A DNA stretch of 26,592 nt from a virus (IMGVR_UViG_2645727539_000008:1-26592); one strand, 5' to 3'; shown: positions 2,686 to 15,789, numbered from the stretch's first letter. Notes: generated from the sequence alone by a model not told the origin. Numbers and translations: made by a program.

Positions 2686-4181
2686 TATGCAGACTCCTCT
2701 GAATACTGAAGACGGAACTGGTTAACCACGGCAAAGACACGCAACTGGTTAACATAGTCAGGCGGGAACAGCGTGTTCAGGCGGTTCGGATCGCTGGCAT
2801 CACGCTCCACAACCAGGTACTGCTTAAACAGTTCGTAGTTTTCCACGATCCCCGCACGCTCAAGCTGACGGTAGGTTGCCAGCAGTTCCCCTTTGATCAC
2901 CGCCGGTGTGACAATCGCCTGACCGGGACCAAAGCGGGTACCGTCGCTGGCAAGCTTGTGACGCCCGTACTTACTGGTAATGACGGATTTCAGTTTGCGC
3001 AGCACATACGCGCTGGTATGCAGCGTCTCGCTGTCGAGGTAGCTGTTATCCGCAACACCGTAAGCGTTTTTCCTGTACGTGGTGACATCACGCTGAATGC
3101 GCAGTACCCCGCTTTCGACATACGCCGTTGCCACGCCATGAGACAGCAGGGTCTGTTGTTCGGTCATCGTGAACCGTTTCCCCTTCGGCGCAGGCAGCAT
3201 ACCCACCAGCTCACCGGTCTGCGTGGGACGTGCCGGATCGTTGCGAATAAACACCGCTGCGCGGGCGGTACGGCTTGCCGCCAGCTCGTCGGCAGGCGTC
3301 TGGGTCTCTTTTTCGTATCCCGCCAGGGTAATGTGCTGCTGGTTAAACTGGTCACCTGCGGTCACCAGTTCTGACAGCGTGCCGATCTTTGCCGTATACA
3401 CATGACCATACAGCTGACGCGCATAGCTCCAGCGACCGCTGGTATCGTTCATCTCGGTCACCAGCGTGTTAACGGAGGCCGTGTCGTTGAACGGCAGGCC
3501 GATATAATCAAACGGCTCATCCGCCATTGCAGCCACCGCGCCGGTGAGAACAGGAGCGCCCGTTCCGGCGGTACCCGTCGCCACGGCAATCTGTACGCCA
3601 GCTGGCAGCACTTCGCCCCCACCAAAGCCGTAGTAATTGAGGCTGACAGGAATTTCATTCCCGCAAAACCCCTTATGACGCGCGGTCAGTGTGACCACGC
3701 CTGCCGAAGATGAGGCAGTAAACGGCAGGGTCGGAACGGCATTGATGGCATCCTGGATACTGCTGGCAATCGTCGCGACGTTATCGCCGTTGGTCACCGG
3801 TGCCTGCACGCGGGTACGTCCCACATAAACATTCACCGTGCCGGTTTCGGTTGCCGCGCCGGTCACCGTCAGCGTAACTGTTGCCGCCGCGCCCGTGGAT
3901 TCAGGAACGGCAATCACATACAGTTCACCAAACGGGTCGGTCTGGCGATAAGCCTCGACCATACGCGCCAGCTGACTTCCCGCACCACAAATCTGGCGTG
4001 CATAGTCTGCCGATGGCATCAGCACCAGACTGTTGGCAACAATCTCTGCACCGTTATTGGCATGACCAATCAGCAGCGATGCTCCGCTGTCCTGTGCAGT
4101 ATTCGCCGCCGAGTTATCCATTTCCGCATAAAAAATCGGAACCAGCGTATTCGACGGAATGGTGTTAAAGCTTATCGTCAT
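2685..4181 (-). CDS. Contractile tail sheath protein
   Basis: 498 aa, N-terminus MTISFNTIPSNTLVPIFYAEMDNS typical of Mu/P2-type sheath proteins; followed by the tube gene. Confidence 0.85.
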   Translation of the reverse strand: MTISFNTIPSNTLVPIFYAEMDNSAANTAQDSGASLLIGHANNGAEIVANSLVLMPSADYARQICGAGSQLARMVEAYRQTDPFGELYVIAVPESTGAAATVTLTVTGAATETGTVNVYVGRTRVQAPVTNGDNVATIASSIQDAINAVPTLPFTASSSAGVVTLTARHKGFCGNEIPVSLNYYGFGGGEVLPAGVQIAVATGTAGTGAPVLTGAVAAMADEPFDYIGLPFNDTASVNTLVTEMNDTSGRWSYARQLYGHVYTAKIGTLSELVTAGDQFNQQHITLAGYEKETQTPADELAASRTARAAVFIRNDPARPTQTGELVGMLPAPKGKRFTMTEQQTLLSHGVATAYVESGVLRIQRDVTTYRKNAYGVADNSYLDSETLHTSAYVLRKLKSVITSKYGRHKLASDGTRFGPGQAIVTPAVIKGELLATYRQLERAGIVENYELFKQYLVVERDASDPNRLNTLFPPDYVNQLRVFAVVNQFRLQYSEESA

Positions 4182-5792: not shown

Positions 5793-6112
5793 AGTGGTAT
5801 AAGGCGATAAGGAACAACCAACCAGTTAAAACTCATTGGCAACTCCATTTTCTCAACGTCTGTAACCGTTGAGCGGTTTTCGTAGAAATGGCTGACAAGT
5901 AGCAGAAGCGCCAGCTTCACATCATCAGATATCACAAGCCCATCAGGATCATCCGCAGGCCTGTCATCTGCGGTTGCATACAACTTACGGTTAAGGAAGT
6001 TTTCCGTACGACTCTGAGCGGCCTTACCAAGCAGTTCAAGCAACTCATCTTCATCAGAGAAATCATCATCCAGACGGAGCTGAAGCTTAATCTCTTCCAT
6101 TTTTAACAGCAT
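5789..6112 (-). CDS. Head-tail connector (gp6-like DNA packaging protein)
   Basis: Start moved to internal ATG (MLLKMEEIK) preceded by AGGAGG; acidic ~107-aa protein immediately after the capsid gene. Confidence 0.6.
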   Translation of the reverse strand: MLLKMEEIKLQLRLDDDFSDEDELLELLGKAAQSRTENFLNRKLYATADDRPADDPDGLVISDDVKLALLLLVSHFYENRSTVTDVEKMELPMSFNWLVVPYRLIPL

Positions 6113-12192: not shown

Positions 12193-12513
12193 CTAAATCA
12201 GATCACCAATGTATTTTGCACTAATTGAAATTTGCATCTGAGGCATTCCGACCACAGATCCATTTAACAGGTAATCACGTCCTCGTTCCTGCAAAGAAAG
12301 ACTCAATTCAAAGTTCTTTACCCCAGGGAAAACCGAGGTGGCATTTAAATCATGCTGCGATACGCGCAGAATAAGTTGGCTACCGTCAACTTTTCCCTGA
12401 TACGTAAAACCAAAATCTCCGCCGTTTACTGCATTGTTTTTGACAACTACGGTACCATTACCAAAATCACGCTGATTGCTTCTGAAAACAACAAAATAGA
12501 TACCATCTTTCAT
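12193..12513 (-). CDS. Hypothetical protein (moron between lysis and packaging genes)
   Basis: 106 aa, AT-rich coding region, own SD-like sequence and own downstream terminator; no signal peptide or recognisable motif. Confidence 0.55.
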   Translation of the reverse strand: MKDGIYFVVFRSNQRDFGNGTVVVKNNAVNGGDFGFTYQGKVDGSQLILRVSQHDLNATSVFPGVKNFELSLSLQERGRDYLLNGSVVGMPQMQISISAKYIGDLI

Positions 12514-12605: not shown

Positions 12606-12875
12606 TCATTTTTTTTGCATGATGTGACCACGCTCAACTTCAATCCTTCTGATGTCAGCTTTATCGGTATTACATTGCGCCAATGCAGACAACAAGGCGA
12701 CATTCAGATCTAAGCTCGAGCCCCACGTAAAATGATTAGGTAAATCAGGCTGAGGGGTTTCAGCCGTCAGGCTGGCTGGTAACGGAACTACCGGAACCTG
12801 GACGTAAACTGTTCGCGTACTTCCGCAACCGGTCAGCAGCGGCAGCAGGCACAGGACGTGAAGCACAATCATCAT
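12606..12875 (-). CDS. o-spanin (Rz1-like outer-membrane lipoprotein)
   Basis: Start moved to internal Met; signal peptide MMIVLHVLCLLPLLTGC with lipobox, Pro-rich mature part; overlaps the 3' end of the Rz-like gene in another frame. Confidence 0.7.
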   Translation of the reverse strand: MMIVLHVLCLLPLLTGCGSTRTVYVQVPVVPLPASLTAETPQPDLPNHFTWGSSLDLNVALLSALAQCNTDKADIRRIEVERGHIMQKK

Positions 12876-13152
12876 CCGCAACAGCCACTTTGATATCTTT
12901 CTGGGTTCTCTGTGACTCCAGTGCGATCTGCTGTTTTGCATGTTGATTCGCCTCCTGAATGATGTTCGTTATTGCCATAGTACGCAGAACATTCGCGGTG
13001 ATAGCCTCAGTAGAATCAGCTCGCTGTTCCGCAGCATCAGCACGCTTCTGCTCCTCCAGAAACTTTCCATGATAGTGATTCGCTGACCAGACAAGACCAC
13101 CAGCGACACAAGCAATAAACGTTAAAATGAGCGCCCAATAACTCATCTTCAT
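12760..13152 (-). CDS. i-spanin (Rz-like)
   Basis: 130 aa, N-terminal TM helix then charged coiled-coil periplasmic domain; directly downstream of the endolysin gene. Confidence 0.8.
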   Translation of the reverse strand: MKMSYWALILTFIACVAGGLVWSANHYHGKFLEEQKRADAAEQRADSTEAITANVLRTMAITNIIQEANQHAKQQIALESQRTQKDIKVAVADDDCASRPVPAAAADRLRKYANSLRPGSGSSVTSQPDG

Positions 13153-13763
13153 ACCAGCAGCGCCGCCCGCGCCTTGTTGTATCGGACCTTACGATCCTCA
13201 ATACCGTTCAAACCGCCGTTAATGATGCGCGTAACACGGTTAATATCGGCACCGTAGATCATGCAACCTTTAGAGGTGTAGAACCATGCAGCTGAGCGCG
13301 CAGCCTGTAGTTCCTGTTCCAGTTGTTCAGGTGAAGTCACCAGATCTAACTTCAGCGCCGCGCCACAGATGCGATAATTATGGAGGCCAGTGATTTGAAT
13401 TAATCCTCTACCGCGATATTTCCAGCCATCACCGGGTGCTTTGTTACCCAGCCGGTTGCTATACACCAGATTGGCAATAGCATCCTGGCGAGCTGCATGT
13501 CCGGATGTTCTGCCAAGGGCATCAGCCTGCTGCTGTGTGATCCTCTTTCCGAACGTCGCCACCAGCGCAGATGGCGTGTAGTTAAAATTTTCAACTACGG
13601 CGCTAAACCCCATCGACTCATGGCCTACCTGAGCGATAAACATTGCCTGATCCGCTGGTGCTGTAATGCCGAATTCCTTCATCGCCGCATCAATGTGCGG
13701 AAACCAGCGCGCAGCCAGCCCGGCGCTAATACCAGCCGCCTTTTGAAATAATTGTTGGTTCAT
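13149..13763 (-). CDS. Endolysin, glycoside hydrolase family 19 (chitinase-like lysozyme)
   Basis: 204 aa with GH19 signature motifs FIAQVGHESMGF and YRGRGLIQITGLHNY; sits between holin and spanin genes. Confidence 0.9.
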   Translation of the reverse strand: MNQQLFQKAAGISAGLAARWFPHIDAAMKEFGITAPADQAMFIAQVGHESMGFSAVVENFNYTPSALVATFGKRITQQQADALGRTSGHAARQDAIANLVYSNRLGNKAPGDGWKYRGRGLIQITGLHNYRICGAALKLDLVTSPEQLEQELQAARSAAWFYTSKGCMIYGADINRVTRIINGGLNGIEDRKVRYNKARAALLV

Positions 13764-14044
13764 TAGTGCCTCAGATGATCAACCAGACGTGCAACGTTGC
13801 CTCTGACAGCCACCAGCACGGAAAGAAAAATAGTGTTCGCCACGATAATGGGCCATGAGGAATGGGGATAAATCCCACAGAGATAGGCCAACGGAACAGC
13901 ACTGTATGTAACAGTAATCAGCCAGGCTAAACGTGAAACCCAAGGACGATGCCGCGAATCACCACGACGATAAAACATCAGAGTAATAACAACACAAGCA
14001 CATAACAGCGCATTTATAGTTGCTGTCGGGTCATTTAGCTCCAC
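13763..14044 (-). CDS. Holin
   Basis: 93 aa with three predicted TM segments and a charged C-terminus; immediately upstream of the endolysin. Confidence 0.7.
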   Translation of the reverse strand: MELNDPTATINALLCACVVITLMFYRRGDSRHRPWVSRLAWLITVTYSAVPLAYLCGIYPHSSWPIIVANTIFLSVLVAVRGNVARLVDHLRH

Positions 14045-14417
14045 CTGAACCTCCCCGGCGCGTTATGAGCGCCACCAGCGAGCCGATATCCTGATTATTC
14101 AGGAACGTCAGGATTTTAACGGCTAAAGCAGAGACGATTACGGCACCAATAGCATCCAGAGGTTTATCACTGTATCCGGTCAAGTTCGCCAGCTTGGAGC
14201 CAACCAACCCAGAGCAAAGAATCCCGGCAATATATGACACGATAAAATATGCCAGTCGGCGCGATGCACTCAGATCTGCAGCTGTTGCTATGTAGAATAC
14301 AGCCCCTGCAAATGCGCCAAATACAACGCCGTAATCAGTTCCGGTCAGCAGTCCATAAACACTGGCACCCGTCAGGGCACCACCAGCCAGCCCAGTACCG
14401 GAAATCGGATCGGACAT
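14031..14417 (-). CDS. Holin-like membrane protein (second holin or antiholin)
   Basis: 128 aa, Gly/Ala-rich with 3-4 TM segments; strong SD (AGAGGGGG) before its ATG; first gene of the lysis cassette. Confidence 0.65.
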   Translation of the reverse strand: MSDPISGTGLAGGALTGASVYGLLTGTDYGVVFGAFAGAVFYIATAADLSASRRLAYFIVSYIAGILCSGLVGSKLANLTGYSDKPLDAIGAVIVSALAVKILTFLNNQDIGSLVALITRRGGSGGAK

Positions 14418-14460: not shown

Positions 14461-14489
14461 AAACAAAAAAGGCCGCATTAAGGCGGCCT
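14461..14489 (-). terminator. Rho-independent terminator downstream of the Q-proximal moron
   Basis: Stem AGGCCGC / GCGGCCT with a short loop, followed on the minus strand by UUUUUU. Confidence 0.65.
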
Positions 14490-14507
14490 TGGTGAGGTAT
14501 AGTTTTT

Positions 14508-15104
14508 TTAAGATAAACTTTGATTGATATACTCATGACACCCAAAAATAAAGGCGTTTTGTGCATCAATAAATGACTTTTTTTCTTCCGGAGTAAAATA
14601 CCCTTTTGTAAAACATACTTTTAGCGCTTTTTGAAGATCTGCCGTCAGGGTTATCAACTTACAACCTTCCTCATCAGGCCTTATTAATAGAAGTAATTTA
14701 TTTTTACTTATTTCAGCGGCCTTTATTGGAACTTGAATCTCCTCAGGGAAAACACCCTTAGCCAATATATCCATATTCTTATTTCCGACCAGATGCCATT
14801 GCTCAAATGTGCTGGCCAACATAATTACGTCTGTCACATGCTCAGCGCCAGCAAAACGTATTTGTTGCGCCAATTCTTTATTAGTATTCAAGTGAGCCTG
14901 TAATGTGGCTAAGGCAAAATTTTCTTTGATTGCCCTGTATGCAACCCAACCAGTTATTCCTGCGGCAATAACGCCTGCAAGAGCAGTAATGAGTGTTTCA
15001 AAAGGAAAGGAAGAACTGATTTCAATTGGCGGTAATTTTTCTATTACCAAGGTCAACTCGCCAGTAGTTTTTTCGAAAGCGTACGGTACGTTTTGCCAAG
15101 TCAT
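14508..15104 (-). CDS. Hypothetical membrane-anchored protein (moron between Q and lysis genes)
   Basis: 198 aa, one TM segment (ITALAGVIAAGITGWVAY), AT-rich codon usage unlike neighbours, strong SD AGGAGG, bracketed by terminators. Confidence 0.65.
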   Translation of the reverse strand: MTWQNVPYAFEKTTGELTLVIEKLPPIEISSSFPFETLITALAGVIAAGITGWVAYRAIKENFALATLQAHLNTNKELAQQIRFAGAEHVTDVIMLASTFEQWHLVGNKNMDILAKGVFPEEIQVPIKAAEISKNKLLLLIRPDEEGCKLITLTADLQKALKVCFTKGYFTPEEKKSFIDAQNAFIFGCHEYINQSLS

Positions 15105-15135
15105 GAAGCCTCCTGAGTTTCAGAGGAATCATAAC

Positions 15136-15159
15136 AAAAAAACCCGCTCAATGGCGGGC
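15136..15159 (-). terminator. tR'-like terminator just downstream of the Q gene
   Basis: 6-bp stem GCCCGC / GCGGGU followed by U7 on the minus strand, about 50 nt after the Q stop; the position matches lambda tR'. Confidence 0.55.
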
Positions 15160-15210
15160 TCTTAATGTTGTGTTGCTCAGTTCGCTTTAACGTCCCGAGC
15201 CTACCACAAT

Positions 15211-15789
15211 TTAAGCACTTTCTTGCTCACTCTGCAACTTAAATCTGTCGCTATTTGTGCCGAATGCGTCACAAACTGGAGCGTACAGGATCGATTCTGC
15301 AAGACTTAGCCAAGTGTCAATGCGTCGACGACAGGTGATCAGCGGCCAGTCAGGATGTTTAGCCTGCAGTTCATTGGCCATCTGCAACTTGCTCTTACGA
15401 AGACGATACCGGTCAACAATCACGCTATAGAGCGATCGGTAGTCATCATTCATCAGTACTGAAGCAATGACACCGTCCACTAACAACCCTTCTTCATCTG
15501 AACAGAACGCCAGGCCGCTTTTATTTTTGCTGTTGAGAATTTCACGCAGGTACGCTTCAAGTTCAGGCTTGGTGATACCCGCTATCTTCATCCGGCGTAG
15601 CGCTTCATTGATAGCTGTCTTGGTGATTTTCCCGGATGCCAGAAGCTGGTTAAACATGTTTCCACCACTACCACCGCCGATATAAGACCAGCGGCCCCAC
15701 ATGCGCAACTTGCCTTGTATCCAGATACTTTCCAGAGTACGAAGGCGAACCATTTCACCTGATTTGCCAACTTCAGAAGGATTAATCAT
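15211..15789 (-). CDS. Late-gene antitermination protein Q-like
   Basis: 192 aa; position between nin-region genes and the lysis cassette, followed by a tR'-like terminator; motif RMWGRW recalled from Q-family antiterminators. Confidence 0.7.
   Translation of the reverse strand: MINPSEVGKSGEMVRLRTLESIWIQGKLRMWGRWSYIGGGSGGNMFNQLLASGKITKTAINEALRRMKIAGITKPELEAYLREILNSKNKSGLAFCSDEEGLLVDGVIASVLMNDDYRSLYSVIVDRYRLRKSKLQMANELQAKHPDWPLITCRRRIDTWLSLAESILYAPVCDAFGTNSDRFKLQSEQESA

Follow-up and report, generated by a model that had tools for sequence, protein, structure and literature searches.

What kind of gene lies between the late antiterminator gene and the lysis genes of a lambdoid prophage when its product has no toxin-like feature? 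The Q-to-lysis junction of lambdoid phages houses Shiga toxin and other conversion genes; in the Shiga toxin (Stx) phages 933W and H-19B, stxAB is found at the Q / tR' / S junction. We analyzed such a junction in a viral DNA of 26,592 nucleotides (nt) (IMGVR_UViG_2645727539_000008:1-26592; this whole 26.6-kb stretch is called the window below), in which an open reading frame (ORF) at 14508..15104 (-) encodes a protein of 198 amino acids (aa). RefSeq labels the gene “hypothetical protein”. The comparisons presented here show that the gene belongs to a mobile accessory (“moron”) unit of about 660 bp, low in guanine plus cytosine (GC) and insulated by terminators, in a cargo hot spot of a lambdoid Escherichia coli prophage. 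Morons at the Q-S junction are textbook knowledge, and the family of the protein, PHROG 18859, is already catalogued without a function. What is new is the delimitation of the cassette, the strict conservation of its position across different types of Q and holin, and the geometry of its leader hairpin and putative promoter.

On its upstream side, the cassette is bordered by a late antiterminator Q-like gene (15211..15789 (-)), whose product matches DUF1133 in Pfam (E 3.4e-92) and PHROG 753, “anti-termination protein Q-like”; Phage_antitermQ also scores 34.8 bits on it (cut-off 26). On its downstream side is a holin pair (13763..14417 (-)), beginning with Phage_holin_8. The GC content of the cassette ORF is 0.384, against 0.508 for the window, 0.478 for Q, and 0.522 for the holin. 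An AT-rich gene placed between a tR'-like terminator after Q and the first holin, as the initial annotation had described it, is therefore what the locus contains.

The borders of the cassette were obtained by pairwise BLAST against loci that carry other cargo. Homology to L002 ends at 15134 and restarts at 14472; for L003 and L004, the restart points are 14462 and 14490, respectively, whereas the cassette of an Enterobacter locus (L009) aligns with the window over 15140..14505. From these comparisons, the left border lies at 15134 and the right border at 14472-14462, so that the mobile cassette spans 14473..15133 (-) and contains the promoter-like element, the leader, the ORF, and the 5' part of the downstream terminator. 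The holin pair is found at 99% DNA identity or more in about 115 E. coli genomes, about 30 with the gene and about 85 without it. In strain SEC470, both holins have the same RefSeq accessions as in strain D10, but the Q gene and the cargo are different. The earlier proposal that the slot is a cargo site is borne out by related E. coli prophages with near-identical holins, in which it is filled by unrelated low-GC genes of unknown function: a 249/261-aa soluble family (L002 3217-3966; L004 2694-3479), an 85-aa protein (L003 3210-3467), and an 89-aa DUF2513-like protein together with a 264-aa protein that has C-terminal transmembrane (TM) segments (L005 2153-2422 and 2632-3426). The 89-aa gene has a perfect TGTTATAAT upstream. 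This alternative cargo gave no match above threshold in PADLOC or Pfam, and the scan neither supports nor refutes a role of the slot as a hot spot for defence genes. Homologues of the cassette gene also lie 6-15 GC points below their own loci. In other words, the unit combines a discrete insertion with presence/absence polymorphism, a deviant GC content, and a downstream terminator, termination being predicted from the sequence.

Intrinsic terminators had been expected on both sides of the gene, and both were recovered. The tR'-like hairpin (15163..15138 (-)) has a 10-bp G+C-rich stem followed by a run of seven Ts (-14.8 kcal/mol, z -4.2), and the downstream hairpin (14490..14469 (-)) is likewise followed by a T-run (-14.3 kcal/mol, z -4.0; the whole terminator spans 14463..14490 (-) and is predicted to insulate the holin genes); none of 200 shuffles was as stable in either case. 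By count alone, sites that resemble terminators are no more frequent in the 2.5-kb region than chance predicts (4 found against 2.6 +/- 1.4 expected). The two flanking terminators are nevertheless credible because they are strong and because both reappear at equivalent positions in diverged homologous loci, with compensatory changes in their stems. A hairpin of the downstream type, with such changes, follows the gene in 15 of the 21 family contexts and is also present 3' of other cargo (L002, L004, and L005). The tR'-like terminator is common to the window and to L002, which has a different cargo, and it can therefore be assigned to the Q module. Searches of Rfam returned only sub-threshold resemblances to Trp/Phe leaders, which merely reflect these two terminators and were set aside.

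The initial annotation recognized no family for the protein. It does lack a characterized one, but over its entire length it fits the profile of PHROG 18859, a family of unknown function (E 7.3e-91; residues 1-198 align with all 198 profile positions). Pfam, NCBIfam, and PADLOC gave no match to the 198-aa protein and, a spurious NiFeSe_Hases hit aside, Pfam gave none at E <= 0.1. The 34 full-length relatives in the alignment all fall in PHROG 18859, without another noteworthy match; against PADLOC-DB v2, these 34 gave only scattered and inconsistent matches (E 5e-4 to 6e-3). A word-indexed search of 5.8 billion proteins found 11 clusters only, from E. coli and Enterobacter, at 70-99% identity, and a profile search run exhaustively over 1.84 billion representatives returned 36, almost all with lengths of 190-232 aa. 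A scan of genome contigs yielded one locus only. The named members come from eight genera: Escherichia, Enterobacter, Salmonella, Citrobacter, Pantoea, Pectobacterium, Providencia, and Proteus. As for the window itself, about 30 of 5426 complete E. coli genomes have a chromosomal prophage that matches an 821-bp region of it at 99.6-99.9% identity, including isolates from dog, rat, human, horse, chicken, marsupial, and wastewater, and no host-range or pathotype pattern is visible among the carrier strains. The prophage of strain D10, which adjoins tRNA-Thr and proA, has a typical lambdoid make-up.

Among 50,697 deposited phage genomes, a single one has a family member, namely that of the cultured lambdoid phage LLS. 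In tblastn searches of these records, neither the window protein nor the member P0012 gave a match, and only P0037 led to LLS; the LLS protein aligns with the family at an hhalign probability of 99.3%. In the LLS record (PQ299149.1; L062 3441-4103, record 38668-39273), the annotation splits the member into two hypothetical genes that overlap, 49 and 50. The sequence favours one ORF starting with MWQGIPF at record position 38668, and upstream of it are a terminator hairpin, TGTTATGAT, and a GGGGG Shine-Dalgarno (SD) sequence. A literature search with the RefSeq protein accession returned nothing, and the sole LLS paper is silent on the gene; that paper reports that the phage plates on E. coli K-12 (PMC12315714).

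The gene is real and is under strong purifying selection. Between E. coli and Enterobacter alleles (homologues 70-76% identical; Nei-Gojobori method), the ratio of nonsynonymous to synonymous substitutions (dN/dS) is 0.05-0.15, with synonymous sites near saturation. A frameshifted allele, P0002, is present in a minority of E. coli (16 member sequences and 31 contigs; e.g., NZ_CP049845.1, E. coli UPEC-245U); its last ~25 residues are replaced and the product is 224 aa long. This allele indicates that the gene is decaying in a minority of its carriers.

The protein had been described as having one N-terminal TM helix and a soluble domain of ~140 residues, and the details agree: one hydrophobic segment, TLITALAGVIAAGITGWVAY, occupies residues 37-56, preceded by a 36-aa N-tail and followed by 142 residues. 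An AlphaFold2 model built on the 34-sequence alignment (mean predicted local distance difference test score, pLDDT, 82; predicted template modelling score, pTM, 0.65) has a disordered N-tail (residues 1-31), an unbroken helix (35-106) that comprises the TM segment and a stalk, and three further helices (121-140, 145-167, and 172-197) that form a bundle together with the distal stalk. A model from a shallow 10-sequence alignment reached a pLDDT of only 41 and was discarded. Conservation peaks at the membrane: pairwise identities average 48% for the TM helix and 38% for the N-tail but fall to 23% along the stalk and 15% in the bundle. W3, P7, P25, and F33 of the N-tail are nearly invariant, and the TM helix is both conserved in sequence and rich in small residues. 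Averaged over the 34 members, the 15-residue flank on the N-terminal side of the TM helix has 1.0 K/R and 2.0 D/E, and that on the C-terminal side 2.8 K/R and 1.0 D/E, which gives net charges of about -1 and about +1.8, respectively. By the positive-inside rule, an N-out/C-in orientation is therefore predicted, which would place the acidic 36-aa N-tail in the periplasm and the stalk and four-helix bundle in the cytoplasm. We infer that the TM helix engages in a specific contact within the membrane, the partner being either the helix itself or a conserved component of the host inner membrane.

The position of the gene is strictly conserved. In all 19 distinct contexts, it is found after the late antiterminator and before the lysis genes, or within what remains of that interval. 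The adjacent antiterminators belong to four Pfam families (DUF1133, PF03589, PF06530, and PF06323), and the adjacent holins to at least five types (Phage_holin_8 with 3_7, 2_1, 2_3, 3_1, and an unclassified small protein). Extra cargo shares the interval in some loci: DNA methylases (L051, L053, and LLS), an Endonuclease_NS gene (L065), and reverse-strand ORFs (L015 and L056). In Enterobacter hormaechei (L006-L008), a decayed prophage keeps the ORF intact beside a host Peptidase_M3 gene, without Q and lysis genes and with the tR' stem disrupted; in a Citrobacter/Salmonella-type remnant (L063/L064), the ORF is likewise intact, Q is truncated, and an insertion sequence (IS) element stands in the position of the lysis genes. 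In the E. hormaechei loci (~5880-6000), a pR'-like element is kept and the tR' stem is broken (AACCTCGCTATGTCGGTTTTTTT), so that the gene may be transcribed constitutively from the old late promoter, a possible case of domestication.

Does this adjacency mean that the gene serves lysis? The protein could be a lysis-timing accessory, antiholin-like or a generic membrane modulator, made as the first late product and in low amounts through the SD-occluding hairpin described below, which tunes holin triggering. The gene does lie directly upstream of the lysis cassette in most intact-prophage contexts, with intervening cargo in a few; it encodes a membrane protein whose conserved TM helix is rich in small residues; one subfamily leaves no room for a promoter, so that Q-dependent read-through must express the gene there; and the lambda S sdi element is a precedent for RNA structure that controls translation of the first late gene. 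We nevertheless regard this explanation as unlikely. The ~85 genomes mentioned above have the same holin pair and no cassette, close homologues (75% identity) adjoin an unrelated holin family, and the family as a whole is found beside at least five holin types. Two independent lineages, moreover, retain an intact gene after losing the lysis genes. Searches of Pfam, NCBIfam, PHROGs, and PADLOC found no homology to holin, antiholin, spanin, exclusion, or defence proteins, and the homology to a known lysis protein that the initial annotation named as contrary evidence thus did not appear; its suggestion of a lysis-timing regulator is disfavoured by the same variety of holins, by the absences beside holin pairs at least 99% identical, and by the retention without lysis genes. 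The T4 holin T and antiholin RI, with one TM helix and a large soluble domain each, are the nearest architectural precedents. The cassette protein resembles them in having one TM helix after a ~35-aa N-tail, a C-terminal domain of ~140-160 aa, and a gene beside lysis genes, but it is predicted to have the opposite orientation (C-terminus cytoplasmic) and an all-helical bundle, it has no profile match, and its gene is not bound to any one holin type. Purifying selection, absence beside near-identical holins, and retention without lysis genes together indicate a selected accessory gene and not a lysis component. These observations show that the gene is dispensable for the adjacent lysis cassette and tied to no single holin type. 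The initial annotation had also held that absence of the cassette from otherwise identical phages, with no difference in phenotype, would speak against a role; the results correspond to this only in part, through the holin pairs that occur without the gene.

When would the gene be expressed? Immediately past the stop codon of Q, and ~35 nt short of the tR' stem, lies TGGTAGGCT (15206..15198 (-)), a pR'-like extended -10 element. L009/L048, L051, and L016 have similar TGGTAATTT / TGGTATGTT elements 15-45 nt 5' of their hairpins, and L006, where the hairpin is disrupted, has one at the equivalent place. The element and the terminator probably form a pR'-short RNA-tR' arrangement, with TGGTAGGCT as the late promoter. 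After Q in L009 (~5895-5925) and L003 (~3110-3140), AACGATGGG(T/C)T follows a few bases after a TGGTAATTT / TGGTTAGGAT element and matches the sigma70-dependent pause sequence of lambda pR'. The equivalent region of the window reads GACGTTAAAG instead.

A second extended -10-like element, TGTTATGAT (15136..15128 (-)), opens the cassette straight after the T-run of tR'. It is the sole TGNTATRAT in the window, and this count is not above chance (1 found against 1.5 expected). Of 21 distinct family leaders, 9 have it in the form TG(C/T)TAT(G/C)AT at positions -32 to -36, as does L065 (Pectobacterium); these include leaders of proteins only 20-35% identical to the one in the window, and the element is absent after tR' in the loci with other cargo. 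Across loci, the element shows no meaningful association with the downstream terminator (7/9 vs 8/12). The SD sequence, AGGAGG (15114..15109 (-)), stands 4 nt 5' of the ATG. Both are enclosed in a leader hairpin (15133-15102 (-), -11.4 kcal/mol), in which UAUGA pairs with UCAUG, containing the start codon, and CCUCU pairs with AGGAG of the SD; TGTTATGAT is at the same time the 5' arm of this hairpin. In 10 diverged leaders, 89% of the cells are paired, against 35-53% when the partners are slid, and the covariation score is 0.30 against 0.06-0.18, a value that none of 500 shuffles reached. Compensatory pairs are seen flanking the AUG (C-G/U-A) and in the SD stem (U-A/C-G). The sample is small and its sequences are related, and the evidence from covariation is accordingly moderate.

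The geometry of the two elements suggests how transcripts could be told apart. The anti-SD arm always falls in the 6-8 nt that separate the hexamer from the expected start site; in the window it lies upstream of that site (~15121), and a transcript from the cassette's own putative promoter would therefore be without the arm and have its SD free. The read-through transcript from pR' would contain the entire hairpin, with SD and AUG hidden. The initial annotation had expected Q-dependent late expression from a strong SD. The SD is indeed AGGAGG, but such expression is doubtful, the SD and AUG being sequestered in the conserved hairpin of the read-through transcript.

The same leader can be explained differently, with the gene as a purely late, Q-dependent accessory gene that has no promoter of its own and that blocks superinfection or re-adsorption late in the cycle, or aids progeny release; in that case, TGTTATGAT would serve only as an RNA arm by which translation is restrained. 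The first position after tR' in most family contexts agrees with this, as does the chance-level count of the motif in the window, and TATGAT pairs with AUCAUG in most leaders, with a flanking pair that covaries (CG in 6, UA in 3). However, L016, L060, and LLS retain TATGAT/TATCAT at a place largely outside the predicted stem; the gene is kept in remnants without an intact Q, where late antitermination is impossible; and the downstream terminator is most easily explained as shielding the holins from a constitutive transcript. We consider a purely late gene improbable on these grounds, though worth keeping in mind.

A third possibility is a lysogenic-conversion factor that alters the membrane physiology or signalling of the host, for example by binding a sensor or transporter of the inner membrane and modulating it by means of the TM helix and the four-helix bundle. 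The model does recall the bundles of TorS (3i9w), Adeh_2942 (4k0d), McpN (6gcv), NarQ (5iji), and Tar/Tsr, at 4-13% identity, with fold resemblance as the sole link. Four-helix bundles are generic, however, and unrelated ones (talin, catenin, and designed bundles) score almost as well; Foldseek gave no match at E <= 0.001 against the PDB or BFVD. With identities of at most 13%, the cassette protein also differs from the sensors in having no second TM helix and no transmitter or other output domain, in the predicted cytoplasmic location of its bundle, and in the absence of a Pfam match to 4HB_MCP. Sequence and profile searches of the PDB returned only coiled-coil or bundle noise (Csx28, E 7.9, is not significant). 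Since the carrier strains also lack any pattern of host range or pathotype, a conversion factor of this kind seems rather improbable. Finally, a chance ORF or a decaying remnant without function, for which only the frameshifted allele in some E. coli speaks, is refuted by the dN/dS values at near-saturated synonymous sites and opposed by the full-length homologues of 190-232 aa in eight genera and the confident structure model, and it can be dismissed.

We tentatively favour a factor that is expressed in the lysogen, resides in the inner membrane, and benefits the lysogen, with exclusion of or abortive defence against incoming phages as the leading candidate role. In the lysogen, transcription would start from the cassette's own extended -10 promoter, TGTTATGAT, with the SD free, and would end at the downstream terminator, which would keep the holins unexpressed. 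The late transcript produced under Q antitermination would contain the leader hairpin, with the SD and AUG hidden and translation throttled. The least certain step is the last one: the protein would act at the inner membrane on incoming phages, through superinfection exclusion of DNA entry or as an effector of the abortive-infection type, with the conserved TM helix and the periplasmic tail as its acting parts. It is a bolder, and doubtful, proposal that PHROG 18859 represents a new anti-phage family of single-pass membrane proteins whose expression is switched by transcript identity, the short transcript being translated and the late one muted; such a switch would silence a potentially self-harmful membrane effector during the phage's own lytic growth.

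Several points weigh against the favoured explanation. The protein has no similarity to known exclusion or defence proteins (no match in PADLOC, and in PHROGs only the family of unknown function). A role in lysis could, after all, be the reason why the gene so strictly adjoins the lysis genes. In the subfamily without promoter room (L015, L051, L052, and L057), only 14-20 nt separate the end of the tR' hairpin from the ATG, and an own promoter is therefore not family-wide; the trait common to most family contexts is to be the first gene after tR', not to have an own promoter. Lastly, TGTTATGAT could perhaps be conserved only as the 5' arm of the leader hairpin.

How, then, does the cassette compare with known systems? 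Lambdoid morons are extra genes with their own promoter and terminator between conserved phage genes, such as HK97 gene 15 and lambda bor and lom; the concept is said to come from Juhala and Hendrix in 2000. The cassette is like them in its discrete breakpoints, low GC, downstream terminator, promoter-like element, dispensability, and presence/absence polymorphism, and unlike them in that its promoter is only putative and in its leader hairpin, which would discriminate own-promoter from read-through transcripts; to our knowledge, this is not a described feature of morons. As with stxAB, the cassette lies downstream of pR'-tR' and upstream of the holin, within Q-antiterminated late transcription. 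Its product, however, is predicted to be a non-secreted bitopic inner-membrane protein, and SD/AUG occlusion is predicted in the read-through RNA. HK97 gp15, P22 SieA, and T4 Imm are inner-membrane proteins of superinfection exclusion. The cassette product is, like them, a small prophage inner-membrane protein with conservation centred on the membrane and periplasmic part, an architecture compatible with such a role, whereas Pfam, PHROGs, and PADLOC reveal no sequence relationship to them (gp15 is cited in PMC11364771).

The remaining genes around the cassette complete the picture. Of the holin pair, Phage_holin_8 (128 aa, 14031..14417 (-)) and Phage_holin_3_7 (93 aa, 13763..14044 (-)) overlap by 14 nt, and the sequence does not show which is the holin and which the antiholin. 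With a GH19 endolysin (13149..13763) and an Rz-like spanin (12760..13152 (-)), they form a complete lysis cassette downstream. An ORF at 12606..12941 (-), which has a lipobox-like LLTGCGS, overlaps the 3' part of the Rz-like gene and therefore points to a spanin pair of the overlapped type; its equivalent in SEC470 is annotated as Rz1-like LysC. Further along, 12193..12513 (-) encodes a 106-aa GrlR-like protein in a patch of ~40% GC, with the spanin genes on one side and HNH/terminase genes on the other, and this gene looks like a second moron. GrlR is a negative regulator of the type III secretion island LEE (locus of enterocyte effacement). The Pfam GrlR match (E 3.6e-6, 27.5 bits) is barely over the cut-off, the NCBIfam GrlR score (38.7 bits) is far under its cut-off of 205, and the protein falls in PHROG 2483, of unknown function; RefSeq names the SEC470 equivalent “GrlR family regulatory protein”. 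No tRNAs were found in the window, in contrast to the Q-holin slot of 933W.

What do these results mean for lambdoid prophages? The junction long associated with Shiga toxin is shown to house a set of uncharacterized cargo genes too. Among them is a compact family, found in eight genera of Enterobacterales, in a fixed slot, under strong purifying selection, and kept even in domesticated prophage remnants. At present, this is a solid improvement of annotation and a reasonable experimental candidate, not a surprise. Because phage LLS plates on E. coli K-12 and has a member, the family is directly testable. If the gene tunes lysis, it would be a holin-independent lysis regulator. If it serves exclusion or defence, the family would be new to the current defence catalogues, and its leader RNA would be an example of how a prophage can express a gene in the lysogen and mute it in its own late transcript.

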